Shown: positions 14,212 through 46,807 of the stretch, piece after piece
Layout of the letters: each line of letters starts with the position of its first letter
Position numbering within the stretch: position 1 is the stretch's first letter
NCBI GenBank assembly: GCA_964480475.1
Contig: CAYZPW010000009.1
Span: 1 to 52,324 of the forward strand
Direction of reading: 5' to 3'
Length of the DNA stretch: 52,324 nt
Source of the DNA: an uncultured bacterium
Lineage (GTDB): Bacteria > B130-G9
Position numbers and translations under genes: made by a program
The notes under the pieces: generated by a model
Told to the model about the DNA's origin: nothing
The model's input: the letters and a program-made list of their open reading frames with translations, nothing else
The model's database searches: none

Positions 14212-14577
14212 CTACAGCGACACCCAGCTCTGCATGTTGAACGGAAACGCCTCGCCGTTGGTTGAGGCGGCATAAGTTCCTGCGGCAGCGTGGATTGTGT
14301 GCACATTTTCCTTGCTGCCAGGATTATTTGAGGCGATCCGATCGAGAGCGTGCGTGATAGTGAGCCAGGGCTGCCCCTGGCTCCCATCATTACTGTCATC
14401 CCCAGCATCGGCATCGACATAATAGTTTGACGCCGCGCTGAAACCGACAGCTCCCACAACCAAGAAAACAGAGACAAGAACCGCAAAAGGAAACTTACAC
14501 GTGATGGCAAAACCTCTATCTTTCACAGTGATGCGAGCGAAGCACTCTGGCTTTCCTAGCCTGCTTCGCCCGGTCAC
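14212..14577 (-). pseudogene. N-terminal fragment of a secreted right-handed beta-helix protein (pectate-lyase-like fold), interrupted by a stop codon and fused in-frame to transposase-derived sequence
   Basis: Signal peptide followed by YVDADAGDDSNDGSQGQPWLTITHALD...HAAAGTY, the typical start of beta-helix proteins. A TAG follows, after which the same frame continues with GDDAETTILDAEQGA and then runs into the transposase fragment. Confidence 0.45.
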
Positions 14578-15011
14578 AAGTGGATGGATTTATAGATCAT
14601 CTGTATCACCCAGCCGATTGCTGCCGCAGCAAGGGCAATCAATAGAACCGTGTTGACTACAGATATGGCATCCGAGCCGAGAAAGCCCCACATGATGACT
14701 GAGAGCCCACCACCAATAAATGCGCCGAAGATTGCACCTATTATCGCTATATCCGACCCCAAACCTGAAAGGCCACCAACGAGAGCGCCAAGTAATACCA
14801 TTAGAACCAGCAGACGGCGCTGGTCCGATGAGGCATCGTCGCTAACAAATGAGATCTTATTCTGCTTTCCGGGCGGTTCCACTGCGGGCTGGAGTTCTAC
14901 ACGGCAGGACTGGGCAGGCCAGCCTAACCGTTCGCAGGCATCTGAAGCGAGAGGGGCATCGATTTCAGCCGTCTCTCTGGTGATTAGATTAACAATGCGG
15001 TAACGCGGCAC
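14574..15011 (-). CDS. Hypothetical small membrane protein with glycine-zipper transmembrane segments
   Basis: 145 aa. A soluble N-terminus is followed by GxxxG-rich helices (GLSGLGSDIAIIGAIFGAFIGGGLSVIMWGFLG). Confidence 0.4.
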   Translation of the reverse strand: MPRYRIVNLITRETAEIDAPLASDACERLGWPAQSCRVELQPAVEPPGKQNKISFVSDDASSDQRRLLVLMVLLGALVGGLSGLGSDIAIIGAIFGAFIGGGLSVIMWGFLGSDAISVVNTVLLIALAAAAIGWVIQMIYKSIHL

Positions 15012-15783: not shown

Positions 15784-16101
15784 TCAGCCCTTTTCGGATA
15801 CTGGAACGCCTTCCAGCCTGTCCAGCCTTTCCTCAATCCTTGTGAGGGTATCCATGACCGCCGGTTCCGTTTCTTCCTTACGTGTGAATGCCGGATTGTT
15901 GACCCACCAGTCCATTCCCATCTCTTTGGCCTTATCTACGGAACAAATGACAAGTCGCAGCTGAATCGTCAAGAGCTCGACATCCACCAAGCTTATGCGG
16001 ATATCACCGGCTATGACGATCCCCTTATCCAGGACGCGTTCGAGGAGGTCGGCGATATTGGTGCTTTGGATCGAATGGGTTGGTGCCCGCTGAATGGCCA
16101 T
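15784..16101 (-). CDS. gvpJ: Gas vesicle protein GvpJ (GvpA/J/M family with a C-terminal extension)
   Basis: Core motif DLLERVLDKGIVIAGDIRISLVDVELLTIQLRLVICSVDKAKEMG. Confidence 0.85.
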   Translation of the reverse strand: MAIQRAPTHSIQSTNIADLLERVLDKGIVIAGDIRISLVDVELLTIQLRLVICSVDKAKEMGMDWWVNNPAFTRKEETEPAVMDTLTRIEERLDRLEGVPVSEKG

Positions 16102-16353: not shown

Positions 16354-16749
16354 TTATAGTAGTTTTCCAAGCGGCCCTAGATCGAGATTGAGGTCTTCGT
16401 CCTCGAGGCCGAACTCCTTACGAAGCCTTTCGATCTCCTGGGCTTGCTTCATCAGCGTTATCCCCAATTCTTCGATTTCATCATCATTCAGTGACTTTGC
16501 CTCGATGCGCCGGAGCGCCTGTCGCTCCAAAAGCTCATGCAGCAGTTTGACCAGTGTGAGCACCAGTTGGCCGAGGCCGTTTTTCACATCGTTCTGATTC
16601 AGGTTCAGGCGGCCCGCGCATTTGCGTTCAGATTCCGCACTTTTTTCCCCCTTTGCCGGGGAGCGTTGGAAAAAACCGCTGCTCTGCATCACCTTCGCGA
16701 AATCACCGAGCGCCTCTGACTCTATCTTTGAGTGTTTCTCAGAATACAT
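16354..16749 (-). CDS. gvpK: Gas vesicle protein GvpK
   Basis: LVLTLVKLLHELLERQALRRIEAKSLNDDEIEELG matches the GvpK signature. The start is taken at the internal Met (MYSEK) so the gene does not overlap the upstream one. The annotated ORF extends to 16806. Confidence 0.8.
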   Translation of the reverse strand: MYSEKHSKIESEALGDFAKVMQSSGFFQRSPAKGEKSAESERKCAGRLNLNQNDVKNGLGQLVLTLVKLLHELLERQALRRIEAKSLNDDEIEELGITLMKQAQEIERLRKEFGLEDEDLNLDLGPLGKLL

Positions 16750-16759
16750 GCCTATCCCC

Positions 16760-16999
16760 TTATGCCCGCCGTTCCCGTGCTGACTTTCTTCCCCAGCGGG
16801 AACCATCGGTATCGAAAGGGATCATCTCGCGGGCGGTTTCAATCGATGTCAGCACAACTTGAAGAGAGAGGTAGATCAGATCGATGTTCGCCACCGAAAT
16901 GGTCACCTCCCCCCTCACGACCGCACCTTTGTTGAGGATGCGATCGAGGGCCTCACATAAAGAGACCTGCTCGGTTTCTTCCAACGCATATTCGGGCAT
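16760..16999 (-). CDS. GvpA-family minor gas vesicle protein (GvpM/GvpS-like)
   Basis: 79 aa containing LCEALDRILNKGAVVRGEVTISVANIDLIYLSLQVVLTSIETAREM. Confidence 0.7.
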   Translation of the reverse strand: MPEYALEETEQVSLCEALDRILNKGAVVRGEVTISVANIDLIYLSLQVVLTSIETAREMIPFDTDGSRWGRKSARERRA

Positions 17000-17032: not shown

Positions 17033-19003
17033 TCAATTGTACAGTGCTTCTCCCAGTTGTCCGAGCGCCTCGAGCCCTCGTGGCTCGCCCTGCTGATAGA
17101 CCAGGGTTTGATGCTGATCGGGAAATGCCCGCTTATACTCTTGCATGATTTCGTTTTCCCGCCGGCGAACAGCTGAACACAGGGGACATTCGCTGGGAGG
17201 GGCAGCCAGGTTGAGAAACAGCACCGGGATATGGATATGCATCCGTTGGCACGCCGCGACGAGGTCTTGGGTCTCTAGAAACGCCATCTCCGTCAGGACG
17301 GTCAGGCTGAAGAGCGCCGAGGATTCGTCGCTCTTCAACAGTTCTTGCAGCAGCTTGAGGGCTTTGGACATCTGCACCATGCGCTGTGAGATCTTGGGAA
17401 GTCTGAAGATGCGCTTGTATTTTAAGAAGAGATTAAAGAACGCTTTGAGCCACTGGTCAATGAGCTCGGGGGTCTCCAGGAGGCGCACCAGGTGCCCGGT
17501 TGGCGCCGAGTCGAGAATGAGGAGGTGGGACTTTTGTTGAGCAAGAAACTCCATGGCCTTCACGAGGGCCATGACCTCGTCAATGCCGGGCGGCGAGAGG
17601 TCCATGACCCGTTCCATTACGTCGCGGTCGAAGGTCAAATCAAGACTCGAAGAAATGTCGCTCAAGAATCTCTCCAACTCCTGCGCATATTGGTCTTTTA
17701 AGGTCTCAAACTCTGATTGGGCATCTATCTCCACGGCTGTCAGGCCGGGGCTTAAGCTGGTCGGCGTCGCGCCGATGGGCGTGTCCAGACAGGCTGAGAG
17801 AGACTGCGCCGGGTCGGTCGAAAAGAGAAGCACTTCCTTGCCGTTAAGTGCCCGTGCCATTCGGATGGCGGTGGCGCAGGCCATCGTGGTTTTGCCCACC
17901 CCGCCTTTGCCGGCAAACAGCAGAAGCTTGGTATCAAGCGCAGGTAACTTCGCCGGCCTTATGACTTCGGGCTGCCTGGTCGTTTGAGGAATACTTACCG
18001 AGGGCAGCGGATTCGGCAATACAAACGCATTCTCCCAGAACATCTGCAGGGCTTCTTGGCCGCGAATTTCCTGCGGGTACATGGGAACTGCCGACAGGAC
18101 ATATCCTGCCAATCCGGCATACCCTTTACCGATATTGACGATCTGCCGCGCGTACCGATCCGAACACTGCGGGCACGCGCTTTCCGGATACAGCCGGTTG
18201 ACAACGATGTCGCAAACAGTTATCTGCCGCCGCTCCAGCTCGTTTAACAGCAGCCGGGTCTCGTGGATGCTCAGCGCCTCGGCCAGCAGCACCGGCACAA
18301 AACGGCAGTGGGCCGAATCCGTTAAAAGGCGCCGCATACCCGTTACCGAGTTGGACAAATCCAGAAGAAAGTCATCGAGCGCATCGCGTTGATAGGACCC
18401 GGCAAACAGACGCAGCATGTAACGATGTGTGGCCAGCAATGCATCCAGCGCATCGAGCCATTCTTGGATCAATTTCGGCATGGCCAGAAGCCGTAATGTA
18501 TGACCGGTGGGAGCGGTATCCACCACAATGCAGTGGTATTTTCGACCTTCCACCCACTGTGTGATTTCCAAAAAGGCCATTAGCTCATCCAGTCCGGGAA
18601 GAGAGAGGTCCATGAATCGGCTGATGTCCTCATTATCTAAAAAGGTCCCGCGCGAAGCGATTTCCCTCAGTTTAGCATTGTGTTTGTTTTTAAAGTCGGC
18701 CAAGCAGCCCTGGGCATCAATTTCGAGTGTCTGTAAATTGTCCGGAAGGGATGAATCCTCCAGGCTGTCGCTCAGGGAGTGAGCCGGATCGGTTGAGACA
18801 ATGAGAAAACTCCGTTCAGGCTGATGGCGGGCGTAGTGGAGGGCTGTCGCCGCGGCGCACGTGGTTTTGCCCACGCCGCCTTTGCCGCCGAACAACAAAA
18901 GCTGCAAATCACCGTCATTTAGAAAAGAGGGCGCCGCGGCCACCGCGGCCCCACCGTGCGAAGGTCGTTCCAGAGTGTTTACGTTCTTATTACTCACCAT
19001 CAT
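17033..19003 (-). CDS. Tandem-duplicated (pseudo-dimeric) ArsA/GET3-family ATPase; each half ends in a CxxC motif
   Basis: Two deviant Walker A loops (FGGKGGVGKTT and FAGKGGVGKTT) and two DTAPTGH / DSAPTGH A-loops. CPQC sits in half 1 and CPLC in half 2. The start is placed at the internal MM to avoid an 80-bp overlap with gvpG; the ORF as listed reaches 19072. Confidence 0.8.
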   Translation of the reverse strand: MMVSNKNVNTLERPSHGGAAVAAAPSFLNDGDLQLLLFGGKGGVGKTTCAAATALHYARHQPERSFLIVSTDPAHSLSDSLEDSSLPDNLQTLEIDAQGCLADFKNKHNAKLREIASRGTFLDNEDISRFMDLSLPGLDELMAFLEITQWVEGRKYHCIVVDTAPTGHTLRLLAMPKLIQEWLDALDALLATHRYMLRLFAGSYQRDALDDFLLDLSNSVTGMRRLLTDSAHCRFVPVLLAEALSIHETRLLLNELERRQITVCDIVVNRLYPESACPQCSDRYARQIVNIGKGYAGLAGYVLSAVPMYPQEIRGQEALQMFWENAFVLPNPLPSVSIPQTTRQPEVIRPAKLPALDTKLLLFAGKGGVGKTTMACATAIRMARALNGKEVLLFSTDPAQSLSACLDTPIGATPTSLSPGLTAVEIDAQSEFETLKDQYAQELERFLSDISSSLDLTFDRDVMERVMDLSPPGIDEVMALVKAMEFLAQQKSHLLILDSAPTGHLVRLLETPELIDQWLKAFFNLFLKYKRIFRLPKISQRMVQMSKALKLLQELLKSDESSALFSLTVLTEMAFLETQDLVAACQRMHIHIPVLFLNLAAPPSECPLCSAVRRRENEIMQEYKRAFPDQHQTLVYQQGEPRGLEALGQLGEALYN

Positions 19004-19244
19004 CCTCGCTGAGCGTTCCTCTCGCCTCGATAGCATCCAGACGGTCCAGTAACTCTTTTTCACGCTGGTCAAACTCGGCCTCGGTCATCCGGCCGGTCTC
19101 AAGGGCCATATACAGTCCACTTAACTGTGTCGTCAGCGCCTCGGCCTCGTTGGTGATCTCCTCCTGCGTCGCGTTGTAGAGCTCACGGAAAATCCACAGG
19201 ATGCTGCGGGCCGGAAAAAGCAGAATATCGTCAACGATAAACAT
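18990..19244 (-). CDS. gvpG: Gas vesicle protein GvpG
   Basis: 84 aa. ILLFPARSILWIFRELYNATQEE...EAEFDQREKELLDRLDAIEA fits the GvpG pattern. Confidence 0.7.
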   Translation of the reverse strand: MFIVDDILLFPARSILWIFRELYNATQEEITNEAEALTTQLSGLYMALETGRMTEAEFDQREKELLDRLDAIEARGTLSEDDGE

Positions 19245-19279: not shown

Positions 19280-20037
19280 TCAGTACTTCAGGTCGATCTC
19301 CACAAAGTTGTGCGGCGCCCAGGGCCCGTTGTAGTCCAATGCAAAATCGTTGTCGAACAGGCCGGCGGCCTGCAAGATCCCGGCTTCAAACCTGGCCTCG
19401 GCCTCCCTGGCCACCAGGCAGGCCAGATTCATGACCTCCCGTTCAGTGCGGCATTTATTCCGTTTGATCGCGACACAATGGCGGGATAGAACGTTAACGG
19501 CATCCTCGGTATGGTCCTCTCGGTCCTCGTTGAGGATGCGGTCGAACATCCTTCCCAGCTCGATCTTCTCCTCTCGCGTCGGTTCACGCTGGGTTCCGAA
19601 ATACGTGTCGCGGGCGGACCTTAGCGCCGGGTGAGTATCGATAAAATAATCGAAGATGTTTGGCACGTCCCAGGTGACGCGCAGCCCCATCTCCACCTTC
19701 CCCTGCACACGCTCAAATTGCTCTTGAAAGGCCTCTTGATTGAGGGAGAGTATCCGCTGAATGGCCGCCGGACCGTCGGCAATGATGCCGAAGGACATGG
19801 GCAGCGGCGTGCTCTCGGTCATCAGCTGTTTGAGGACGTTCTGGTGCGCGGCCAGATGGCGGCGCTCCGGACGAATCTTCTGGTTCAGAACATCGCTGAC
19901 GACCGCCGAGGCGCCACCGTTGGAAATCGTATAGACGTCGCCCCCCGTGATGCCGACAAGACCGTTTGTTTGGCTGCTGTCGCCTTCAACAATGGCATAC
20001 AAATAAAGTCCCTGATTGGGTGAGGTCTGTGCCGACA
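19280..20037 (-). CDS. gvpF: Gas vesicle protein GvpF/L family
   Basis: GLYLYAIVEGD near the N-terminus and DYNGPWAPHNFV near the C-terminus. The start is proposed at the GTG at 20037, which is preceded by AAGGCAGGTGG. This gives about 252 aa. The listed ATG ORF (to 20212) would overlap the zinc-ribbon ORF. Confidence 0.75.
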
Positions 20038-20054
20038 CGATTCCACCTGCCTTT

Positions 20055-20294
20055 TTAAGTTCTAGACGAGGATACACCGGCCTCCTCCGGCCGCTCGCTA
20101 GAATCGGTGGGGCCAGATAGGTCCAGCGGCGCGGCGGACGGGCTGTTTGCCAATTGTACCGAGCGGAGGTATCCATTTTCGGTTTTGATCTCAAGCAATG
20201 CCTGACAAGCAAAGCATTTGATTACACCGGTATAGTCGTCATACGCTTCGGATACGTCCACATTGTGTCCGCATGAAAGACAGTTAATCTTCAT
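20055..20294 (-). CDS. Small zinc-ribbon protein (CxxC-x17-CxxC) of unknown function inside the gvp operon
   Basis: 79 aa beginning MKINCLSCGHNVDV...IKCFACQALLEIK. It fits neatly between gvpF (GTG start) and the upstream ORF. Confidence 0.4.
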   Translation of the reverse strand: MKINCLSCGHNVDVSEAYDDYTGVIKCFACQALLEIKTENGYLRSVQLANSPSAAPLDLSGPTDSSERPEEAGVSSSRT

Positions 20295-20380: not shown

Positions 20381-20716
20381 CTAGTACTTGATTTTAAAGC
20401 TTCTCGGCGCATGAAGTCCCGAAGCATGCAACGGTTGATTCTCCGCGGTATTAAGGGTCTTGATGGTTTTGATGCCGCCAAGTCCTTTCAACAGGTAGGT
20501 TTTTTCTTTTTCGATTTCCCGGAAGCGTGCATCGATTTGCCTCACCCGCTGCATCGCACTGTCTCGTTCCTTGCCGCGGCGGGCCTTCTCCATCTCCAGG
20601 GCGCTGATTTGCATAAACGCCCGGTAGGGTTCCGAAAAAATATCCACCTTGCCTGAATTCGTACGTATGCTCTGCACACCACGGATCGTTCTTTTGGGTA
20701 TAGCCATCGTTGTCAC
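20381..20716 (-). CDS. Hypothetical basic/coiled-coil protein in the gvp operon
   Basis: 111 aa with no motif I can name. Supported by position only. Confidence 0.3.
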   Translation of the reverse strand: MTTMAIPKRTIRGVQSIRTNSGKVDIFSEPYRAFMQISALEMEKARRGKERDSAMQRVRQIDARFREIEKEKTYLLKGLGGIKTIKTLNTAENQPLHASGLHAPRSFKIKY

Positions 20717-20737: not shown

Positions 20738-21745
20738 TCAAAGACACATCCGCGGTTCGCGCAGACTATCGTTGCCGGAAGCCTGATGCTTTTCACAGAC
20801 CGTTTGTATGATCTCTTCCATCTTGGGGAGCATGAGCGACCGCCCCTCACGGGTAACCTTGGCCGTGTCAAGGTTCAAAACATCGCGACAGACGCGCATG
20901 AATGCCGTGTCGCTCGCGCTTGCCCGGCCGCCCATGTGGGCGAGGATTTTGGCAACGGCAATACAGGTCCGGATCGTCGGCCGGTTGTTATTCACACCGA
21001 TCTGGCGCAGCTCCCGGATGATATCGACAATGATTTCGGAATCTGATTGGGGCAGGCCGGACTTGGCCTTGGTGATTTGAATTTCGGTGTTGCGATCGAA
21101 ATGGTCCACTTCGATGGTGATGAGCCGGTCCATGAGGGCATCCTGAACTTTGTGGACGCCTGCATATTCTTCCGGATTGGAGGTAAAAAGCGCCCGAAAG
21201 TTGGGATGCACCTCAATATACCCCATACCCGATCGGCGCAGCTTGGGCAGGTTGAGGATTTTCTCCTCCAAGACGCTAAGCAGGGCATTATTGGCTTCGG
21301 GTCGGGAACGCGTGAACTCATCATAAATCAGCGTGGACCCGTTTTGGCAGGCCCTGGTCAGCCGGTTATCTTCCCACATGGTATTATAATGTTCCTCGGT
21401 CTTTAATACCGAATGAATGTAATTATCGATGAGTTTATACTTGCGGTACCCCGAATCCCGGCCAATCAGATCGGAGCTCGAAAACTCGTCATCCCCATGA
21501 ATGAGTGTCACCGGCTGTCCCAGCTGCGCCGCCACATGGAACGCAAGCGTCGTTTTGCCGGTCCCGGCAGGCCCGGCGAAGTGTATCGGGTATCCGACTT
21601 CAAGGTAGGCGAGGGCACGGTCAGTCAGATCTTGCACATAGGGGGTAACGACGAAGTCTTCACTGGCCTCCGGTGTGACGTTGTCATCGGGAGCGGGGAC
21701 CATTACCCTATTATCGGATACAACTCTCAGACCTGTTTCATTCAC
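20738..21745 (-). CDS. gvpN: Gas vesicle AAA+ ATPase GvpN (CbbQ/NirQ/GvpN family)
   Basis: The P-loop region reads GYPIHFAGPAGTGKTTLA. The length and the rest of the sequence are typical of GvpN. Confidence 0.9.
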   Translation of the reverse strand: MNETGLRVVSDNRVMVPAPDDNVTPEASEDFVVTPYVQDLTDRALAYLEVGYPIHFAGPAGTGKTTLAFHVAAQLGQPVTLIHGDDEFSSSDLIGRDSGYRKYKLIDNYIHSVLKTEEHYNTMWEDNRLTRACQNGSTLIYDEFTRSRPEANNALLSVLEEKILNLPKLRRSGMGYIEVHPNFRALFTSNPEEYAGVHKVQDALMDRLITIEVDHFDRNTEIQITKAKSGLPQSDSEIIVDIIRELRQIGVNNNRPTIRTCIAVAKILAHMGGRASASDTAFMRVCRDVLNLDTAKVTREGRSLMLPKMEEIIQTVCEKHQASGNDSLREPRMCL

Positions 21746-21772: not shown

Positions 21773-22855
21773 TTAAACCAGTGCCTTGGCCTGCTCGATC
21801 CATTTCTCCGCGTCGGTCGCTTTGGCCATTTTGCCCAGGGCTTCCTCCAATGCCGCAGGCGTGCTCGCTGCCAGTTGTTGAAGCGTAAAAATACCGGCTG
21901 CGTTCAAACGACTTTGACGGCCGGGGCCGATGCCGCTGATTTGGGCAAGGTCGTCAGGCGCGCCTTCTCTTGCTTTCTCAACCGGCGCTTCTTCCTTCTT
22001 GCGCGGCGGTGCCGATGTTCTCGCCCAGGCACGATGCGCGTTTTCGATGTCGGTCGCAAATGTTACCCTCAGATCCCAGACCCGGTGTCTCAGGTCGCTC
22101 ACGGACTTTTTGACTTCGGACAGAAAAGTCTTCCGGTCAATTCGGCTTCCCCTCGCCATGCCGAGCCGGTCATCGCGAAAACTCGATTCCAGTTGCACGA
22201 CACTTTCCTTTAAGGCCGATACAAAACTGCCCAGGTTGTCCTTCATCAGGCGGGCCATTTCAGCGTGATCGGTCCGGAAACCGGTCCTAATGTTCCCAGC
22301 TTCACGCGACAACTCGCAGACGTCTTTTTTCAACCCGTTCATGAATGTCCTGAGATCGGCCTCGGTCTTCTCAGCGGTTTCAGCTCTATGGTTGAAAAAG
22401 CCTTCCACCATTCGGGTTACATCGACGGAAAGACCGGATGAAAAAGTCTGCAGTTCATCTGTCAATCGGCGCGCCATCGCCGCACGCTCGTCCCGAAAAC
22501 CTTCCTGCAAATCAAAGACCTCATCTGCCATCGCATTGACGTATTCTCTGATATCCGACGCGAATCCATCGAGCTCCGCTCGCAGCGTTTGCGCCATTTC
22601 AAACCTGTCGTTGCGGACTGTTTGGGTCATTCGCGATACGTCTGTTCTGAGATCCGAAACGAAAGCCCCGAGGTTATCGTTCATCCCGCGGGCCATCGCA
22701 CCGTGCTGGTCACAAAAACGCGAACGCATAGCTTCCACATCGTTCTGCAATGCGGCCGCATCCTGCTGCAACTGCCCCAGAAAAGCGAACCGGCTTTGCC
22801 TTAAGGCACCAATGTCATCACGCAGGCGGGTCATATCGTCAGTTAGGCTGCCCAT
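21773..22855 (-). CDS. Repeat-rich amphipathic protein, a candidate GvpC-like shell-associated protein, with a C-terminal helix-hairpin-helix motif
   Basis: At least five degenerate repeats of roughly 33-40 aa anchored on an MA..L...L..F.S.L...V..M pattern. The C-terminus reads ISGIGPGRQSRLNAAGIFTLQQLA, an HhH motif. Its position between gvpA and gvpN corresponds to gvpC in cyanobacterial clusters. Confidence 0.4.
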   Translation of the reverse strand: MGSLTDDMTRLRDDIGALRQSRFAFLGQLQQDAAALQNDVEAMRSRFCDQHGAMARGMNDNLGAFVSDLRTDVSRMTQTVRNDRFEMAQTLRAELDGFASDIREYVNAMADEVFDLQEGFRDERAAMARRLTDELQTFSSGLSVDVTRMVEGFFNHRAETAEKTEADLRTFMNGLKKDVCELSREAGNIRTGFRTDHAEMARLMKDNLGSFVSALKESVVQLESSFRDDRLGMARGSRIDRKTFLSEVKKSVSDLRHRVWDLRVTFATDIENAHRAWARTSAPPRKKEEAPVEKAREGAPDDLAQISGIGPGRQSRLNAAGIFTLQQLAASTPAALEEALGKMAKATDAEKWIEQAKALV

Positions 22856-22998: not shown

Positions 22999-23226
22999 TT
23001 ACGCCGGAGCAGCCGCTGCCGCGGTGAGGCCAATGGCCTCGGCGTACTTCAGATAAGTCTCGACTGAGGCGATCACAACTCTTGCCTCGATGGAGAGGAG
23101 CTCGATCCCAACCAGGGAGACCTTGGCCCAGGCATCGATCACGATCCCCTTATCCAGGATCCGGTCGACGACTTCGGCAAGGCTCGAGGAATCGGTTGAC
23201 TTCTGAATCTTCGCCCTTTCCGCCAT
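22999..23226 (-). CDS. gvpA: Major gas vesicle structural protein GvpA
   Basis: [54 protein letters not shown] is a near-canonical GvpA sequence. A strong ribosome-binding site (AAAGGAGGAcaatcATG) precedes the start. Confidence 0.95.
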
Positions 23227-23520: not shown

Positions 23521-23937
23521 TCAGCGGAACGAATTCCCCATATCGAGGGAGGAGGCCGGTAGTTGGGAGACGCTTCTGATGATCCTCAGAATCTCATCAT
23601 TTTTGAAGGGCTTGGACACGAAATCATCGATGCGCTTTTCCTGCAGCGCCCTCTCCACCATCGGGTCATTTTGATAAAAATAGCCGGAAACGACCACGAT
23701 CCGAATTGAGGGGTCCAGTCTCCGGATCTTTTTTGCCAATTCCAAGCCGTCGATGTCCGGAAGTTTGGCATCCAGAAAAGCCATTTGATAAGAACCTCTG
23801 CGCAGCAGTCCAAGAGCCTTCCCGCCGCTTAATGCGCTCCGGGCAGTCATTCCCACGCTTTCGATGATATGCTCGAGAGCCCAGCACATATCCGGTTCAT
23901 CATCTACGACGAGAAACATCGGAGTTTTCGCTGTCAT
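23521..23937 (-). CDS. Single-domain response regulator (CheY-like receiver)
   Basis: MFLVVDDEPDMCWAL...FLDAKLPDIDGLELAKKIR...VVVSGY. The start is taken at the internal Met (MTAKTPMF). The 5' extension in the listed ORF looks non-coding. Confidence 0.75.
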   Translation of the reverse strand: MTAKTPMFLVVDDEPDMCWALEHIIESVGMTARSALSGGKALGLLRRGSYQMAFLDAKLPDIDGLELAKKIRRLDPSIRIVVVSGYFYQNDPMVERALQEKRIDDFVSKPFKNDEILRIIRSVSQLPASSLDMGNSFR

Positions 23938-24004
23938 ATATGCTCGTAAACAGTTCGGTTCCCCCTTCTGCCATGCAGCGCCACGTACTTCGGTATTTAT
24001 CGAA

Positions 24005-25534
24005 TTACAGCATCGGCAGCATGATGGTAAAACTGGTTCCCCGGCCCTCAATGCTCTCCACCTCGATGGTACCGGAATGCTGCTCGATGATGGCGTAACA
24101 GATGGAAAGGCCCAATCCGACACCTTCTCCCACCGGTGAAGTCGTGAAAAAAGGGTCAAATATCTTATCGATGTTCTCTTCTACGATACCGTGGCCCGTG
24201 TCGGCCACTCGAATCAACGCGCTGCATTTCGTTTTCTGGACGGATACCGTTAGGTGCCCGCCGTCCGGCATCACTTTGAGCCCGTTCAGAAAGAGGTTGA
24301 TGAAAACCTGTTGCAGCAGACCGGCACTACCGTTGATGAACACCGGCTGCGCGGGGAAATCTGATTTGAGCTTGATTTTTTGGATGTTGATCTGGTTGGA
24401 AATGAGCGCAATGGTCTCTCTGATGATATCAAGAAGATTGACCTCCTCCCTGTTCGATCCCTCTGGAGGGCGCGCGAATTTTAGCAGATTCTCGATAACG
24501 ACGGATGCTCTCTCAATCCCCTCGTGGAGCTTCCTGGCGCATTCGATGCGGAAATCCGGGGAGATGTCATCCGCCAAAAGGAATTGGGCGGCTGAAGAAC
24601 AGATCGCCAGCGGGTTTCGAATCTCATGGGCGATCCCACCGGCCATCACGCCCAGCGCAGCAAATTTTTGCGACTGGCGAAGCTGCATCTCCATTTTGCG
24701 GCGCTCGGTATGATCTCTGCCCACGACCACGAATCCGGCTGTCTCCAACTGCTGGTCTTTCATCGGCGAACAAACCCAGGAAACATGGGTATCGAGCCCC
24801 TTTTTCGTGACGAGGTCCCACTCCCCGGTGACCGAATCTCTCCGAGTTCTCATCTCGGAAAATATCTTCCTCACGTTTTCCTGGTGATCCTTGGCGCATA
24901 ACCTGTAGAAAACCTGGTTTTTTACCTCAGTGAAACTGTATCCGGAGATTCTCTCCGCTGCCGGATTCCAAGAGAGTATCCTTCCGTCGGTGTCGGTGGA
25001 CAACATAATGTCACTGGCGCTGTCGAAGATACTCGCCAGATGGCGTTGAACGCGTTGAATCTCATCGCTCAATTGGATCTGTTCGGTTACATCATCCATT
25101 AAGAGCATTACGTTCTCAACGCTCCGCTGCCACTCAAACGGGACAATGCGATAATAGTAAGTCCGCATCGAAACGCCCGGAGATCGAAAGAACATCCGCT
25201 GCCCTTTGGTGGGCTGGCTCGAACGGAAGACCTGGCGAATCTGGCCGATGATATCCATCTTTTCGATAATCACGGCGGGAAAGATCTTCTGAAGCGGGAA
25301 ACCGATGGTGTCGGATGCCGACCGCCGGCTCTTCTTCAGAAAGTTCCGATTGGCAAGCACGACACGCATGTTCTGATCGATCATCAGAACCGAAGACGGT
25401 ATCGTATCCAGCAGCATGGCATACAGCTTCTGATGCCAGTCGGAGGCGCCGTCGAGTACAATTCCGGTCTTAGTTGAATCCGGCAAAGAGGCCTTTCGCA
25501 TTTCCGACGGATGGCCGTTGGCTTGATCTGTCAT
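24005..25534 (-). CDS. Sensor histidine kinase with PAS domains, a HisKA domain and a HATPase_c domain
   Basis: H-box HEIRNPLA. HATPase_c G-boxes (…DTGHGI…, …GLGLSI…). PAS-like repeats upstream of these. The start is proposed at MTDQANG so that it overlaps the upstream gene by 4 bp. Confidence 0.8.
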   Translation of the reverse strand: MTDQANGHPSEMRKASLPDSTKTGIVLDGASDWHQKLYAMLLDTIPSSVLMIDQNMRVVLANRNFLKKSRRSASDTIGFPLQKIFPAVIIEKMDIIGQIRQVFRSSQPTKGQRMFFRSPGVSMRTYYYRIVPFEWQRSVENVMLLMDDVTEQIQLSDEIQRVQRHLASIFDSASDIMLSTDTDGRILSWNPAAERISGYSFTEVKNQVFYRLCAKDHQENVRKIFSEMRTRRDSVTGEWDLVTKKGLDTHVSWVCSPMKDQQLETAGFVVVGRDHTERRKMEMQLRQSQKFAALGVMAGGIAHEIRNPLAICSSAAQFLLADDISPDFRIECARKLHEGIERASVVIENLLKFARPPEGSNREEVNLLDIIRETIALISNQINIQKIKLKSDFPAQPVFINGSAGLLQQVFINLFLNGLKVMPDGGHLTVSVQKTKCSALIRVADTGHGIVEENIDKIFDPFFTTSPVGEGVGLGLSICYAIIEQHSGTIEVESIEGRGTSFTIMLPML

Positions 25535-26373
25535 GTGATCCAGGCTACCTCGTCCGGTCGCTCGGGTGTAACGAAGTTGTACGGTGGCCACGGGCCGCTC
25601 AAAAGCAGTTTATGGGGCCCGCGCTTGCTGACACGCCGGAACGCTTGCCGAAATGATTCAACCGACGCTCGGCGGACGAGAAAATAGAGGGAGAGGACCC
25701 GATTGCTAAATGGGGACACCGTCTGACGTGTCGGACCTGTCAGACCCGTCGGAGCCAATTCCGATTTGAACCGGACAAAGAGCCCAGAAAACGCAGATCG
25801 AATCTGTGCGATTATGTGCTCAATCTCTTTTAGATTACGGTCCTCGCGGGAATAATGGGCTTTGCGTGCCGACAAGTACTGCTTGCCGGACCGCGGGAAT
25901 TGAGTATTCGGACCAGTCGGACGAGTCGGACGAGTCCGACGAGTCGGACCAGGAGGGCATTGAGCTTCTGACATCATGACCCGGATTCCCATCTCCACGC
26001 TGCCCTTGAGCTCGCTTAACAGGGACAAATAGTAGTGGGCACGCTGCCCCAAATACCGCCCGACCTCTTCCTTGTCCGGGAACAGACAGCCGTAGCGCAT
26101 CGGGATGACGGTGCGGTCGTGGTTAAAGCGTTCGATGATCCTTTGGTAAGCCTGAATGCGCGTGATATCCGGTGTCAGATTCGGATGGACAGATGGAGAG
26201 ACCGAGGCGCCGAGACCATTGTGCGATACAACCATAATCGGTTGGCCGTCAACCCCTGTGAGGCGGACGGTTGTGTAGGGGCGTGGTCTCAGACCCGCCC
26301 GCTGTGCCCCTGCAAGGCGGACGGCTGGCGACTTTTCCTCGTTGGCAAATATGCAATAAAGGAGGTATTTCAT
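25531..26373 (-). CDS. GvpF/L-family paralog that carries an in-frame insertion of the 27-bp palindromic repeat plus two 9-bp microsatellite tracts
   Basis: KYLLYCIF at the N-terminus and LSGPWPPYNFV at the C-terminus. Residues AGAQRAGLRPRPYTTVRL are encoded by the solo repeat at 26275-26301 together with an 18-bp direct duplication. PTRRTRPTRPTGP and PTGLTGPTRQT are encoded by GTCGGACNN 9-mers. Confidence 0.7.
   Translation of the reverse strand: MKYLLYCIFANEEKSPAVRLAGAQRAGLRPRPYTTVRLTGVDGQPIMVVSHNGLGASVSPSVHPNLTPDITRIQAYQRIIERFNHDRTVIPMRYGCLFPDKEEVGRYLGQRAHYYLSLLSELKGSVEMGIRVMMSEAQCPPGPTRRTRPTRPTGPNTQFPRSGKQYLSARKAHYSREDRNLKEIEHIIAQIRSAFSGLFVRFKSELAPTGLTGPTRQTVSPFSNRVLSLYFLVRRASVESFRQAFRRVSKRGPHKLLLSGPWPPYNFVTPERPDEVAWIT
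26275..26301. repeat. Solo copy of the 27-bp GC-rich palindromic repeat, flanked by a roughly 20-bp imperfect direct duplication (cccctgtgaggcggacggttgt / cccctgcaaggcggacggctgg), lying inside the coding sequence
   Basis: GTAGGGGCGTGGTCTCAGACCCGCCCG is identical to the reverse complement of 1284-1310. Confidence 0.6.
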
Positions 26374-26398
26374 CTGCCTGGTAAGCCTTATTTACCCT

Positions 26399-27271
26399 TC
26401 ACACCATTTCCAAGGTCGGGGAGAAGCTGTAGGGGGGCCACGGCCCGGAGAGCTCAAAGTGAAGTCCGTGCTCCGCCTGCGCGGCCTTTATTCGGTTGAG
26501 GCACGCCGCGAAGACATCCTGGGAGTCTCTGGAAAGCAGAAACGCCCAATTCAGAACCATGTCCACATCCAAGCCGGTGGCATCACGGGAAAGCACTTTG
26601 CGTTCGCAGAAACGCGCCGCATACTGCCCGAGGTCTTCCCAAACTGCGGTCAAGATCGCTTTCAATCTCTGGTTCAATTGCCGCTCAACTTCGGCCGCCA
26701 TCTGCCTCTGCATGAAATACTGCTTTCCGGGTGAGAAAGATGCGAGACGCTCCTTCTCACCGGCCATCAGGTCCGAATTCAGCGACCTGTGCGCTTGCGC
26801 CCTGTCCAAGAATCCTTTCAGCGCCCATTCCGCTTTGTTGTCCACCTCGCCTAAGAAACGCGAAATGGTGCCATGGTGACGGACACATAATCCCACCATC
26901 CGCTGGGATGAGGCAAAAATCGTCCCGAAGCCTGCTGGCAGCACCGGTGAGTGCCGCATCACAGCCTCCACCACTTCCTGGTGACGACAGGCCCGGGGGC
27001 CCACCCAGGCCAGGTCCTTGAGGTCCGTTTCGGCCGACGGCCCGCTGAAATCCGCAACCATCACCTTGCTGGCCACGGCCACGATGTCCTTGTACGTCCA
27101 TTGTGAGACGGGATAGCGGGCATCCATGCCGGCGACCTTCAGCAACGGCACTCTCGCGGCCTGCGCAAAACCATAAAGATAGACGCCTTGCGCTTCGCGC
27201 GGTTGTGCTGTCGAACCAGTCAGAGAGGTCGGACACGTCAGACTGGTCGGACATCTATTATCAACCATCAC
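26399..27271 (-). CDS. gvpL: GvpL/GvpF-family gas vesicle protein with an N-terminal PTSLT repeat
   Basis: GVYLYGFA near the N-terminus and ELSGPWPPYSF near the C-terminus. The N-terminus reads CPTSLTCPTSLTGST and is encoded by 9-bp GTCGGAC-type tandem repeats. Confidence 0.7.
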   Translation of the reverse strand: MMVDNRCPTSLTCPTSLTGSTAQPREAQGVYLYGFAQAARVPLLKVAGMDARYPVSQWTYKDIVAVASKVMVADFSGPSAETDLKDLAWVGPRACRHQEVVEAVMRHSPVLPAGFGTIFASSQRMVGLCVRHHGTISRFLGEVDNKAEWALKGFLDRAQAHRSLNSDLMAGEKERLASFSPGKQYFMQRQMAAEVERQLNQRLKAILTAVWEDLGQYAARFCERKVLSRDATGLDVDMVLNWAFLLSRDSQDVFAACLNRIKAAQAEHGLHFELSGPWPPYSFSPTLEMV

Positions 27272-29379
27272 ACCGCCTCCAGGGCGCTAAAAAGATCGTC
27301 TGACGTGAGGCACAGATCGGGAACGTCGTCGGCCCCCGCGTCCCGTCCGGCCTGCACCGCGCGTCGGAGCGCAGAAAGCGCTGCTTTGTGACAGATGCCG
27401 GCAATTTCGGCCCCGCTGAGACCCTCGGTCTTTGCCGCCAGATCGTCTGGGCGAATATCCGCTGCGAGTGGTTTGTTGCGCAGATGAATCGCAAAAATCT
27501 TCTCCCGGCCATTTTTATCCGGCATGGGGATCTCGATAATCTCGTCAAAACGTCCGGGCCTCAGCACCGCCGGGTCAAGCATATCGGCCCGGCTTGTCGC
27601 GCCCAGGACCAGGACCCCCTTGAGTTCTTCGATCCCGTCAAGTTCGGTCAGGATTTGACTGAGCACCCGTTCCGACACGTGCGCATCCGATGCGCCGCCT
27701 CGAATCGGAACCAGGGCATCGATCTCATCAAAGAAAATGATACAAGGGGCAGCCTGCCTAGCCTTTTGAAAGACCTCCCGGACGGCCCTTTCGGATTCGC
27801 CCACATATTTAGAGAGGAGTGCCGGCCCCTTGACGGAAATAAAGTTGACGTGAGTTTCATTAGCGATGGCCTTGGCCATTAGCGTCTTCCCGCAGCCGGG
27901 CGAACCGGACAGGAGAATCCCCTTGGGCGGCTTGATCCCGGCCTGATCAAAGAGACGGGGAAACTTTAGGGGCCATTCCACCGCTTCCACCAGACTCTCC
28001 TTAACCGCGTCCAGGCCGCCGACGTCCTCCCAGCGAACATTCGGTACCTCGACGAAGACCTCTCGAATGGCCGATGGCTCCACCTCCCGCAGGGCGGCGC
28101 GGTAATCGTCCATGTGGACTTCCAGGGCCGCGAGCTGCTCATAGGGGATGGATGTCAGCCCAAAATCGATATCCGGCATGATCCGTCGCAAACAGAGCAT
28201 GGCGGCCTCGCGGCAGAGGGCTTCAAGATCGGCGCCGACGAAACCATGCGTAATTTCGGCTAAGTGCGCCATGTCCACGTCCGGGGCCAGCGGCATGCCG
28301 CGGCTGTGGATGTCCAGTATCTCCAATCGGCCGAGGCGGTCCGGAATCGGAATGCGGATTTCCCGGTCAAAGCGGCCGGGGCGCCGCAAGGCCGGGTCCA
28401 GGGCATTGGGGATATTGGTGGCCGCAATGACGATGACATTTTGACGCTTGGTAAGCCCGTCCATGAGGGCCAAAAGCTGGGCGACCACCCGCTTCTCAAC
28501 GTCCCCCACAACTTTTTCCCTGGGCGGGGCAATGGCGTCGATTTCGTCCAGAAAGACGATGCTGGGCCCCTTGCGGCTGGCCTCATCAAAGATCTTACGC
28601 AGATGCGCCTCGCTTTCTCCATAGAACTTGTGGATAACTTCCGGGCCGCTGACGGAAAAAAACTGGGCCTCGGTTTCGTGGGCGATAGCCCGGGCAATGA
28701 GGGTTTTGCCGCATCCCGGAGGACCGTGCAGCAGCACCCCCTTGGGGGCTTCGATCCCGAGGCGGCTGAAAACCTCCGGATACCGCAGCGGCAGCTCGAT
28801 CATCTCGCGTATCCGCAAAAGCTGAGGCTTAAGCCCGCCGATGTCCTCGTAGGCTACCCGGCCCGCGGAGTCCGCTTCTTTCGTCTTGACGATGGCAAGT
28901 CGGGTGGTGGGATTGATGAGAACAGGGCCTTCAGGGACCGTATGCTGCACTTTGAAGTCGGCAGACCGGCTGCCAAATAGATTGGCCCGGATCCGGTCGC
29001 CCACCAAAACCGGCAAGCCGTCCAGAAGACTTCCGATGTACTTCAGATCACGCTCGCTCGGGGTGATGCTTGTCGGGGCTAATGATACTCTCTCCGCCGG
29101 GCTACAGGCCGTTTTGCGGATGTTCACGAACTCATCGAGGCCGGCGCCGACGTTCTCTCTGGTGAGGCCATCAAGCTGCACCCGGGACTGGCCGCGAATC
29201 TCCTTGTAAGCTGGCATGGCCTTACAGACGGTTCTGCGTTTGGCCTCGATCTCTACGATGTCACCGATAGCCAAATCCAGTCGCTTCATGTCTTCCGGGC
29301 CCATTCGGGCAAAGCATCTTCCAACGTCCTTGCTGAGGGCTTCCGTAACTTTCAGTTTAAGTCCTTCTTTCTCTTTCAC
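27268..29379 (-). CDS. Cdc48/VCP/VAT-like double-ring AAA+ ATPase (N-domain, D1 and D2)
   Basis: Two complete AAA modules (GPPGCGKTLIARAIA...DEIDAI and GSPGCGKTLMAKAIA...DEIDAL). The N-terminal domain resembles a double-psi barrel. Confidence 0.85.
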   Translation of the reverse strand: MKEKEGLKLKVTEALSKDVGRCFARMGPEDMKRLDLAIGDIVEIEAKRRTVCKAMPAYKEIRGQSRVQLDGLTRENVGAGLDEFVNIRKTACSPAERVSLAPTSITPSERDLKYIGSLLDGLPVLVGDRIRANLFGSRSADFKVQHTVPEGPVLINPTTRLAIVKTKEADSAGRVAYEDIGGLKPQLLRIREMIELPLRYPEVFSRLGIEAPKGVLLHGPPGCGKTLIARAIAHETEAQFFSVSGPEVIHKFYGESEAHLRKIFDEASRKGPSIVFLDEIDAIAPPREKVVGDVEKRVVAQLLALMDGLTKRQNVIVIAATNIPNALDPALRRPGRFDREIRIPIPDRLGRLEILDIHSRGMPLAPDVDMAHLAEITHGFVGADLEALCREAAMLCLRRIMPDIDFGLTSIPYEQLAALEVHMDDYRAALREVEPSAIREVFVEVPNVRWEDVGGLDAVKESLVEAVEWPLKFPRLFDQAGIKPPKGILLSGSPGCGKTLMAKAIANETHVNFISVKGPALLSKYVGESERAVREVFQKARQAAPCIIFFDEIDALVPIRGGASDAHVSERVLSQILTELDGIEELKGVLVLGATSRADMLDPAVLRPGRFDEIIEIPMPDKNGREKIFAIHLRNKPLAADIRPDDLAAKTEGLSGAEIAGICHKAALSALRRAVQAGRDAGADDVPDLCLTSDDLFSALEAV

Positions 29380-29459: not shown

Positions 29460-29960
29460 CTACAGGGCGCACTTTATCTCCAAAATGCCGTTATTGCAGG
29501 ACATGTGCATCTTCTCTTTGGGATAACTTCTAGGCATCAGGACTTCTTTGCGGTATTTCTTCTCCCCGTGTTCAGCATATAGCGTCAGCAGATCGTCTTT
29601 GACGTCGATTTGGACATCATCTTCACTGATGCCCGGCATCTCGACCACAACTAGTGTATGGTCCTTCTCCTCGAAGACATCGGCAATGGGCTCGCGAATC
29701 TCCTGCACCACAGCTTCACCGGACTCTTCATCGCGGCGGATGTTTCCGAAAGGCTCAATCTTGACTTCATCCCCTCCCAAACCCACTTTGACGGAGAAAC
29801 CGTATATCCCCTTCAGGTCCTTTCCCTTTCGTTTGAAATCGATCTCTCCGGTTCTAGACAGCCGCTCCCCCTTTTCCGCGAGCTCGCCAAGCTTATCTAC
29901 CAGGTCCGCCAAACCTCCTAGAATCCCTCCGAAGCCGCCTCCGCTCTTCTTGTCACTCAT
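29460..29960 (-). CDS. Hsp20/alpha-crystallin family small heat-shock protein
   Basis: Gly-rich N-terminus. C-terminal alpha-crystallin domain (...VVVEMPGISEDDVQIDVKDDLLTL...ILEI). It overlaps the upstream activator gene by 8 bp. Confidence 0.7.
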   Translation of the reverse strand: MSDKKSGGGFGGILGGLADLVDKLGELAEKGERLSRTGEIDFKRKGKDLKGIYGFSVKVGLGGDEVKIEPFGNIRRDEESGEAVVQEIREPIADVFEEKDHTLVVVEMPGISEDDVQIDVKDDLLTLYAEHGEKKYRKEVLMPRSYPKEKMHMSCNNGILEIKCAL

Positions 29961-31368: not shown

Positions 31369-31391
31369 GGCTCTTGCTCCGTTCAATCCCC

Positions 31392-32030
31392 TCACCGCCC
31401 CGCAGAGCCGGCGGGTTTCTCGATCAGATGCGCCAGATGAATATCTCCGTTGAGGAACGGCTCGGGTGAGTGAAGCATCCCCAAAAAAAGGACCCCAGTC
31501 TCCCCCGCACATAGGCTGTGATTGATGCGCTGCGCGATATAACGATCACGCGCTTTGAGTAACGATTCGGCCAATGTCTTTTGGTGTGTTTTCATCTTGG
31601 CCGTTCTGGACGCATTGCCGGTATCCAGGATGCATTTGGACAATTCGTATTCTCTGACCAGAAGTTCAGCCGATTCGGTTCCCATGAGGGCAGCGCCCTT
31701 TTCTATCAAACGCAGGAGAAGCTGATGATTGCGGCTGCCCGAAGTCGCCAGTTCCTGAACGATCTCCCGCTCACGCCCGCAAACAGGCAGACTATCTTGA
31801 TAGAGGCGGACTTTAGCGTAAACCAGGTCCAGCCGGTTGATAGCGGTTTCTATGTCCGCCCATATCTGATCTATGGCAGCCACCTTGCGCTTCAGAAGCG
31901 TTTCTCCCATCCTGTAAAGATGAGCCCGGCGAATCGATTTGCCCAGAAGGCCCATATCGGCCTGTGTGTGCACAATGGGCACGTAGGCCAAGGTCCTTTC
32001 GAATCCGCTAGCGTCTGCTTTCCCAATCAT
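31392..32030 (-). CDS. Hypothetical protein
   Basis: 212-aa ORF with protein-like composition but no motif I recognise. Confidence 0.3.
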   Translation of the reverse strand: MIGKADASGFERTLAYVPIVHTQADMGLLGKSIRRAHLYRMGETLLKRKVAAIDQIWADIETAINRLDLVYAKVRLYQDSLPVCGREREIVQELATSGSRNHQLLLRLIEKGAALMGTESAELLVREYELSKCILDTGNASRTAKMKTHQKTLAESLLKARDRYIAQRINHSLCAGETGVLFLGMLHSPEPFLNGDIHLAHLIEKPAGSAGR

Positions 32031-46757: not shown

Positions 46758-46807
46758 GATGCTGACCTTCTGGCATGTAGGTTGTCATCGGAGCTAACGC
46801 CTGTACT

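Follow-up and report, generated by a model that had tools for sequence, protein, structure and literature searches.

A gene within a gas-vesicle (gvp) cluster of an uncultured bacterium (GTDB lineage Bacteria; B130-G9) encodes a tandem, pseudo-dimeric ATPase of the Get3/ArsA fold, which we consider, with a probability of roughly 85%, to be a Get3-type ATPase dedicated to gas-vesicle biogenesis. The gene lies on the minus strand of a stretch of 52,324 nucleotides (contig CAYZPW010000009.1, assembly GCA_964480475.1), to which, in its full length, we refer as the window. The more specific notion that the protein acts as a chaperone or delivery factor for the hydrophobic proteins of the GvpA family has, in our judgment, about an even chance of being right. 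Relatives of this ATPase have surfaced twice in the literature, as gas-vesicle-linked 'ArsA' homologues in 2010 and as a class of tandem, CxxC-containing Get3 proteins in 2019. These two classes are one widespread family, and we found no paper that connects them. What is added here is their unification, a wider phyletic spread, the finding that the CxxC motifs of the two halves are kept or lost together, and the recurrence of chaperone genes in the associated clusters; no new kind of system is revealed.

Two Get3-like domains in a single chain

Sequence searches assign the protein to the ArsA/Get3 superfamily along its whole length. The Pfam model ArsA_ATPase matches it twice (E-value 4e-113), and it scores 377 bits against the superfamily model TIGR00345 (GET3_arsA_TRC40), for which the cutoff is 135. 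A protein of 654 residues in the public collection (P0001) is 100% identical to it. The exact position of the start codon within 18997-19003 is uncertain, and an alternative TTG start at 19072, which would add 23 residues, is possible; however, residues 1-20 are unconserved among 120 homologues and are modeled with a predicted local distance difference test score (pLDDT) below 50.

Direct translation places GKGGVGKT at residues 40 and 365, and the Walker A, switch I (DPAH) and switch II motifs are intact in both halves. The initial annotation had recognized a tandem ATPase with a Walker A motif in both halves and one CxxC motif in each, all of which are seen in the translation. The DTAPTGH and DSAPTGH motifs that it listed are likewise present, but the label 'A-loop' given to them does not hold, as we take them, by established nomenclature, to be the switch II or 'DTAP' motif of ArsA/Get3. 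In the same way, each half does contain a CxxC, but some 45-50 residues still separate it from the end of that half.

The deviant Walker A motif is that of the SIMIBI class, and there are weak P-loop matches to CbiA, AAA_31 and ParA, both of which would suit an ATPase of the ParA/MinD kind that positions gas vesicles in the cell by spacing or segregating them. However, the full-length match is to ArsA/Get3, whereas PF10609, PF01656, PF13614 and the MinD/ParA models of NCBIfam are confined to about 40 residues around the P-loop and score far below their cutoffs. Moreover, a fused dimer would be unable to use an ATP-driven switch between monomer and dimer, and a positioning role is hence very improbable.

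Among proteins of solved structure, the best sequence match is ArsA1 of Chlamydomonas (CrArsA1; 5zme, E-value 2.4e-49), followed by the Get3 proteins of M. thermautotrophicus (3zq6) and S. pombe (2woo). Structure prediction, which the initial annotation had put forward as a check, yielded with AlphaFold2 (from a 120-sequence alignment) a confident model of a closed pseudo-dimer, with a pLDDT of 83 and a predicted template modeling (TM) score of 0.82. In Foldseek comparisons the whole chain best matches a closed ArsA (9nbw; TM-score 0.77, target-normalized), and single halves of the model match Get3 structures, some of them with bound tail-anchored helices. The region corresponding to the TRC40 insert was compared as the stretch from switch II to the next core strand, using median lengths. 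It spans 73 residues in the N half and 66 in the C half of the gas-vesicle-linked proteins, versus 59 and 47 in ArsA and 79 in archaeal Get3, and its hydrophobic fraction is 0.47-0.51 in the former as opposed to 0.40-0.41 in ArsA. Across a diverse set of 107 representatives, with a mutual identity of at most 50%, the hydrophobic helical periodicity is conserved, as are both nucleotide sites. By length, hydrophobicity and periodicity alike, both halves possess an extended helical subdomain akin to the TRC40 insert, and these subdomains are predicted to form a hydrophobic groove.

Many database entries of this kind are named 'arsenite-transporting ATPase', and the tandem architecture, together with ArsA being the best whole-chain structural match, would accord with a bona fide arsenite pump that lies in the gvp cluster by chance. 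This reading is effectively refuted, and the window ATPase is not an arsenite pump, on the following grounds: 1) It scores 167.7 bits against the ArsA equivalog model TIGR04291 (cutoff 650) and 184.9 bits against the ArsA model NF041417 (cutoff 800). 2) In a domain-by-domain alignment with a bona fide plasmid ArsA that adjoins arsD, arsR and arsH (L081), the metalloid-binding cysteines C115 and C423 of the latter (C113 and C422 of the R773 protein) stand opposite G137 and G473 of the window ATPase, inside the invariant motifs PGLDE and PGIDE; the reference is devoid of C172, so that the comparison covers the C113 and C422 positions. 3) In a neighbor-joining (NJ) tree of 135 ArsA/Get3-fold domains from 82 loci, calculated with capped distances, the bipartition that unites the N and C domains of classical ArsA leaves out both halves of the window ATPase in 192 of 200 bootstraps (96%). 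4) The gvp context is conserved, and no ars family is found among the open reading frames (ORFs) of at least 140 codons in the window, those of the size of arsR, arsC and arsD not having been scanned exhaustively. The original statements that the cysteine arrangement differs from the metalloid site of ArsA and that arsB and arsC are missing are borne out to this extent, and the placement inside arsenite-pump ArsA that would have spoken against the initial annotation is not seen.

A hidden Markov model (HMM) of the domains of the ATPase family points in the same direction: archaeal CxxC-containing Get3 proteins score about 200-217 bits over the full length, as against 85-100 bits for ArsA, mainly over the first ~150 positions. 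With the low equivalog score and the position of the CxxC motifs, this agrees with the view of the initial annotation that the signature is nearer to a targeting factor than to an arsenite pump. Monophyly of the gas-vesicle-linked N domains and C domains has weak bootstrap support (24/200 and 73/200, respectively), and the topology of the tree suggests that the tandem fusion in these ATPases may have occurred independently of that in ArsA.

In the alignments, every residue of CPQC in the N half faces its counterpart in CPQC of S. pombe Get3 and in CEFC of M. thermautotrophicus Get3, and CrArsA1 has no cysteines at the aligned positions. In the AlphaFold2 model each CxxC is located at the N-terminal end of a helix, within stretches that have a pLDDT of ~90. 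As the CxxC cysteines of Get3 are the zinc ligands at its dimer interface (PMC6593721), the alignment is in line with the earlier suggestion that the two motifs could build a single site like that of this zinc. Both motifs are present, with all four cysteines invariant, in each of 120 close homologues (56-100% identity), most frequently in the form CP(V/L/Q)C. An exhaustive search of 50%-identity cluster representatives recovered 150 relatives, including the 107 complete tandem proteins. Of these, 82 have a CxxC in both halves and 18 in neither; six combine an intact motif with a half-degenerate one that retains a single Cys, and one protein of 564 residues, apparently with the motif in the C half only, is devoid of the aligned N-half region and is taken as a truncated or partial sequence. 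This co-occurrence (odds ratio about 148; Fisher p 5e-14, uncorrected for shared ancestry, so that the p-value overstates independence) fits the prediction of a single four-ligand site. From the homology to Get3, the invariance, and the pattern of joint retention and joint loss, we infer that the four cysteines probably form one metal site, most likely for zinc, on the pseudo-twofold axis.

Certain other cysteines are also noteworthy for their conservation at close range. C405 (nucleotides 17789-17791; in DPAQSLSACLD, just past switch I of the C half) does not vary among the 120 close homologues, in which C233, C376 and C585 are conserved to 90% or more; over the 107 diverse representatives, all four stay below 85%.

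In the related Mrp/NBP35 P-loop NTPases, a CPxC motif bridges an Fe-S cluster at the dimer interface. The four cysteines of the tandem ATPase might bridge such a cluster too, in which case the protein would switch gas-vesicle assembly in response to oxygen or iron. The predominance of the CP(V/L/Q)C form is compatible with this, as are the largely anaerobic hosts, the presumed location of the CxxC after a conserved Asn strand as in Mrp/NBP35, and the fact that the metal is not identifiable from sequence alone. On the other side, the motif aligns with the CxxC of Get3, and zinc is found at this site in the solved archaeal and eukaryotic Get3 structures. The Pfam NUBPL/ParA match, for its part, is limited to 38 residues of the P-loop. 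Given that the motif is homologous to the CxxC of Get3, zinc is much likelier than an Fe-S cluster, and the switch model appears quite improbable.

Gene neighborhoods and a possible role in gas-vesicle assembly

A scan of one genome per species in GTDB provided a mixed sample of ArsA and Get3 loci, which served as an outgroup set and is not a census of the family, and the flanking ORFs of these loci were searched with the Gvp proteins of the window. Among the matches listed, the 19 strongest loci belong to Gemmatimonadota, Chloroflexota, Acidobacteriota, Rokubacteria, Myxococcota, other 'delta-proteobacteria', Chlorobiaceae and Cyanobacteria; gvp neighbors occur in 17 of the 18 tandem-clade loci with usable flanks and, outside two Chlorobiaceae loci, in none of about 60 classical ArsA or single-domain loci. 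Both of two close homologues reside in gvp clusters with gene-for-gene synteny to the window, the close relatives of the ATPase coming from metagenome-assembled genomes (MAGs) of the Desulfobacterales type. Four of five remote representatives (33-36% identity) also lie in gvp clusters, where their neighbors include Hsp70, further Hsp20s, GvpO and a GvpF/L fused to a DnaJ domain. The ATPase gene is almost always co-directional and placed inside a core of the form F/L-(G)-[ATPase]-(F/L)-J/M-(F/L)-K. On a Nostoc plasmid, the annotated order is gvpA-A-C-N-J-K-F/L-G-F/L-'ArsA family ATPase'-AAA ATPase.

The chaperone genes of these loci present several further features. A Cdc48-like double AAA+ protein (CDC48_N/CDC48_2) recurs in eight of them (L001, L002, L006, L011, L012, L082, L083 and L084), and its gene often directly adjoins the Get3-like gene, also in other phyla; in Lyngbya (L006) the Cdc48-like and Get3-like genes occur as a pair, and the nearest 10 kb contain no gvp gene. 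Other gvp clusters with the tandem Get3-like gene encode an Hsp70, additional Hsp20s or a GvpL/GvpF fused to a DnaJ domain (L085, 6676-8442; L086, 5584-6579; L089, 416-1405), which points to recruitment of the Hsp70 system to gas-vesicle assembly. In MAGs of Chlorobiaceae, a single-domain Get3-like gene (about 310 residues) is situated between genes for Hsp20 and the Cdc48-like protein (L011, 4301-5275; L012, 9974-10921). Of the two CxxC cysteines its product retains the second alone. It falls outside the tandem family in the NJ tree and may represent an independent recruitment.

If the tandem ATPase is indeed a chaperone or delivery factor for Gvp proteins, its cycle might run as follows. As ATP binds, the two helical subdomains would come together to form a hydrophobic groove, which would shield an aggregation-prone hydrophobic segment of GvpA, GvpJ or GvpM, or possibly the N-terminal helix of GvpG, and ATP hydrolysis would free this client at the growing vesicle. 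The Zn(Cys)4-type metal site could serve as a hinge on the pseudo-twofold axis, and the ATPase would act alongside the Hsp20 and Cdc48-like chaperones of the cluster and the GvpF/L-G-J-K assembly proteins. It is hydrophobicity that singles out the GvpA-family hairpins and the GvpG N-terminus as candidate clients: the most hydrophobic 19-residue segments encoded in the cluster are three GvpA-family hairpins, with Kyte-Doolittle values of 1.65-1.75, and the GvpG N-terminal helix, with 1.63. The highest value (1.75) is that of the GvpJ/M-like protein encoded immediately downstream of the ATPase. The initial annotation had spoken of a 'targeting factor', a term best read as a functional interpretation. 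More tentative is the extended form of the proposal, in which a Get3-type ATPase was recruited to carry GvpA/J/M to a gas compartment that is walled by protein and free of lipid, a retained Zn(Cys)4 hinge tying this delivery to redox conditions.

Another ORF of the window (14574-15011), whose product has C-terminal transmembrane segments, was considered as a client and dropped, as it is not conserved next to the homologous clusters.

The ATPase could also be interpreted as a general or redox-switched holdase within a gas-vesicle proteostasis module. Like oxidized yeast Get3/ASNA1, it would then work largely without ATP, with the Zn(Cys)4 site as its redox switch, and would buffer the aggregation of Gvp proteins upon exposure of a buoyant anaerobe to oxygen, in place of delivering a particular client. 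A redox-modulated holdase mode has been described for Get3/ASNA1 (PMC6593721; PMC9803280), and Farkas et al. favored a 'general chaperone' function for bacterial homologues with the TRC40 insert (PMC6593721). The co-occurrence of Hsp20, Hsp70, DnaJ and Cdc48-like genes and the Desulfobacterales-type provenance of the nearest relatives would be in keeping with such a function. Nevertheless, the strict conservation of both ATP sites over the 107 representatives argues for an ATP-driven cycle, and the tight embedding in the F/L-G-J/M-K core, which spans phyla, suggests a specific step. The CxxC is, furthermore, dispensable in 17% of the lineages that keep the gas-vesicle context. Such a holdase is rather unlikely.

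A further alternative is that the ATPase energizes the mechanical growth or remodeling of the vesicle, such as opening of the GvpA lattice at its seam or recycling of assembly factors, in parallel to GvpN and without holding a client. The conserved gvp linkage and the two predicted active sites would be compatible with this, and Castillo and Saier had proposed that these proteins 'energise a biogenic step' (PMC2963123). Yet dimers of the Get3/ArsA type within the SIMIBI class are not known as mechanical remodelers, the long hydrophobic helical subdomains of the Get3 kind are conserved, and the clusters already hold AAA+ machines suited to such work, namely GvpN and the Cdc48-like protein. Such a mechanical step is decidedly unlikely.

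The interpretation that we prefer, a Get3-type ATPase dedicated to gas vesicles with GvpA-family proteins as its possible clients, has to be weighed against several observations. In the assembled wall, the hydrophobic segments of GvpA-family proteins are β-hairpins, and thus differ from the classic helical clients of Get3. The gvpB-U set of B. megaterium, which is sufficient for vesicle formation in E. coli, contains, to our knowledge, no such ATPase. The Anabaena gvpA-W set, equally sufficient in E. coli, is also without it (PMC7204071), and hence the ATPase is not universally required. No tail-anchored protein with a single C-terminal transmembrane helix is encoded in the gvp cluster of the window, and the literature searched yielded no report of client binding, ATPase activity or metal content for this class. 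The linkage itself has exceptions: the remote relative P0254 has no gvp neighbors in its available flank, and Mxa1 of M. xanthus was reported without gvp linkage (PMC2963123). Finally, cyanobacterial members (L082, L006) and some Gemmatimonadota (L008, L014) have no CxxC while retaining the gvp surroundings; its loss in gas-vesicle-linked members implies that the metal site would be useful but not essential to the role in gas vesicles.

The gas-vesicle cluster of the window

The ATPase gene belongs to a co-directional gvp cluster of ~16 kb, located at about 15.8-31.5 kb of the window (Table 1). In the direction of transcription, the cluster comprises genes for a sigma54 activator, Hsp20/GvpH and the Cdc48-like double AAA+ ATPase, two gvpF/L genes, a histidine kinase with a response regulator, and gvpA, and then a gene for a 360-residue repeat protein, gvpN, two small ORFs, gvpF/L, gvpG, the ATPase gene, gvpJ/M, gvpK and gvpJ. 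Pfam matches identify the immediate flanks as gvpG and a GvpJ/M-like gene, just as the initial annotation had described the ATPase gene as embedded between gvpG and a GvpA-family gene. The gvpF/L gene next to gvpG probably starts near 20040, since the Pfam domain begins only at residue 68 of the listed ORF and the homologue in L083 has 252 residues; as listed, this ORF also overlaps the putative zinc-ribbon ORF described below.

Table 1. Features of the ATPase gene and of the surrounding gas-vesicle cluster, in positions of the window
Feature	Coordinates	Strand	Basis or remark
Tandem (pseudo-dimeric) Get3/ArsA-fold ATPase gene	17033..19003	-	656 aa + stop codon
N-terminal Get3-like domain, aa 28-335	17999..18922	-	Domain HMM, alignment to 3zq6 and 2woo
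Inter-domain linker, aa 336-352, VSIPQTTRQPEVIRPAK	17948..17998	-	Poorly conserved in homologue alignment
C-terminal Get3-like domain, aa 353-656	17036..17947	-	Domain HMM and alignment
Deviant Walker A, N half, GGKGGVGKT	18863..18889	-	Conserved in 107 diverse representatives
Deviant Walker A, C half, GKGGVGKTT	17885..17911	-	Conserved in 107 diverse representatives
Switch II / DTAP motif, N half, DTAPTGH, aa 162	18500..18520	-	Translation
Switch II / DTAP motif, C half, DSAPTGH, aa 498	17492..17512	-	Translation
PGLDE, Get3-type motif at ArsA metalloid Cys113 position	18584..18598	-	Alignment
PGIDE, Get3-type motif at ArsA metalloid Cys422 position	17576..17590	-	Alignment
CPQC, aa 277-280, aligned with Get3 zinc-ligand CxxC	18164..18175	-	Alignment
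CPLC, aa 606-609, equivalent position of C half	17177..17188	-	Alignment
gvpG, upstream neighbor; stop overlaps ATPase ATG by 14 nt	18990..19244	-	Pfam GvpG, E-value 1.2e-13
GvpJ/M-like GvpA-family gene, downstream after 33 nt; candidate client	16760..16999	-	Pfam Gas_vesicle, E-value 2.6e-17
gvpK	16354..16806	-	Pfam GvpK, E-value 6e-31
Second GvpJ-like GvpA-family gene	15784..16101	-	Family models
gvpF/L, listed ORF of 310 aa, TTG start	19280..20212	-	Pfam domain from aa 68
gvpN (AAA+)	20738..21745	-	TIGR02640, 340 bits (cutoff 267)
gvpA, major shell protein; candidate client	22999..23226	-	NF006874, 134 bits (cutoff 100)
Two more gvpF/L paralogues	25531..27271	-	Family search
Cdc48-like double AAA+ ATPase, in the chaperone module of the cluster	27268..29379	-	Family search
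Hsp20/GvpH-like small heat-shock protein	29460..29960	-	Family search

The 360-residue protein (21773-22855, minus strand) is encoded directly after gvpA, where gvpC usually stands. Its helical repeats are of the apolipoprotein kind and give self-similarity peaks at lags of 33, 40 and 73 residues, and its C-terminal domain resembles helix-hairpin-helix/DUF4332; weakly similar proteins are encoded at the same position in L001, L083 and L084. The protein might be a GvpC analogue whose tail is of the nucleic-acid-binding type. The two small ORFs between gvpN and gvpF/L (20055-20294 and 20381-20716, both on the minus strand) encode, respectively, a putative zinc ribbon of 79 residues (CxxC...CxxC, with weak Zn_ribbon matches) and a coiled-coil protein of 111 residues that belongs to no family. 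Both are kept in the same place in L083 and L084, and the larger one also in Gemmatimonas (L001), and they look like uncharacterized gvp accessory genes.

Regulatory genes are likewise part of the cluster. A PAS-domain histidine kinase and a response regulator (23521-25591, minus strand) are encoded between the gvpF/L pair and gvpA, an arrangement conserved in L083 and L084; the regulator ORF of 212 residues, as listed, overlaps the kinase, and its translation probably begins close to the receiver domain (about 130 residues). A sigma54-dependent activator of the response-regulator type (29953-31512, minus strand) marks the upstream end of the cluster. The rest of the window contains genes for cytochrome c maturation and glycolysis, and a type I restriction-modification locus (42056-51131, minus strand) with HsdR (42056-45106), HsdS (46808-48052) and HsdM (49119-51131), between which genes for a DUF4411 protein, an M78/IrrE-like peptidase and a RhuM-family protein are interleaved.

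Significance and relation to known systems

The mechanism of gas-vesicle assembly is still poorly understood, and one report describes proteotoxic stress as limiting the heterologous expression of gas vesicles for ultrasound reporters (PMC12848028). The family described here offers a testable hypothesis for an orphan class of Get3 proteins and, for the engineering of gas vesicles, a candidate helper gene. If the proposed function is correct, it would amount to a GET-like targeting or chaperone step with a destination other than a membrane, and would give the 'orphan' bacterial tandem Get3 proteins a defined role; as an accessory factor missing so far, the ATPase could then ease the proteotoxicity of acoustic-reporter expression in heterologous hosts. 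In our literature search we found no paper that combines 'gas vesicle' and 'Get3', and the other matches to ArsA together with gas vesicles were incidental.

Among the characterized systems, Get3/TRC40 of yeast and human and the archaeal Get3 proteins (3zq6, 3ug6) share with the window ATPase the fold, the P-loop, switches I and II, the PGxDE motif, the CxxC at the zinc position and the extended helical subdomain, with 29-34% identity per domain. Unlike Get3, a homodimer of single-domain subunits, the window ATPase is covalently fused; no GET receptor, pre-targeting partner or tail-anchored client is in evidence, the receptors not having been searched for genome-wide, and the presumed destination is a protein-walled gas vesicle instead of a lipid membrane. 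CrArsA1 (5zme/5zmf), a targeting factor for tail-anchored proteins of the chloroplast, is likewise a fused tandem Get3-like monomer, but it is eukaryotic and organellar, has no CxxC at the aligned positions, and superposes more loosely (TM-score 0.57-0.59). The ArsA proteins of E. coli (R773; 1f48) and L. ferriphilum (9nbw) resemble the window ATPase as tandem closed pseudo-dimers and provide the best whole-chain Foldseek matches (target-normalized TM-scores 0.69-0.77); they differ in that the window ATPase has no metalloid cysteines, possesses a longer helical subdomain and the CxxC motifs, belongs to a separate clade, and has no ars genes found beside it.

The closest correspondence is with the two previously described classes. 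In 2010, Castillo and Saier described two-domain ArsA homologues of about 640 residues that are encoded in gvp operons with Hsp20, are without the three ArsA cysteines, and in their view probably energize a step of biogenesis (PMC2963123). The window protein resembles their Clusters 4/6 in its two domains, its similar length, its gvp operon with Hsp20, and the absence of both ArsA cysteines and ars neighbors, whereas the Get3-type CxxC, the insert and the groove went unremarked in that study. In 2019, Farkas, De Laurentiis and Schwappach defined bacterial tandem Get3 homologues with a TRC40 insert in both domains and a CxxC except in Cyanobacteria, which they called 'unique in all domains of life' and whose function they left open (PMC6593721). 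Their Group 8 is scored 'Yes' for the TRC40 insert and, in their Table 1, has no Get1/2/4-binding residues (PMC6593721). Structurally, the window protein fits this group, with two Get3 domains per chain, extended hydrophobic helical regions and a CxxC in each half; the CxxC-less cyanobacterial sister Group 7 in turn matches the absence of the motif from L082 and L006. That paper is silent on gas vesicles and lists 17 sequences, whereas the family as delineated here is essentially the ATPase of gvp clusters and is far wider, extending to Acidobacteriota, Gemmatimonadota, Chloroflexota, Rokubacteria and Desulfobacterales-type MAGs. The window protein thus combines the traits of Group 8 and of Clusters 4/6, namely the tandem architecture, the TRC40-type inserts, the CxxC motifs and a gvp operon without ars genes. 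The link to gas vesicles and the tandem CxxC class are both already published, and the window protein is a typical member of the family that unites them.

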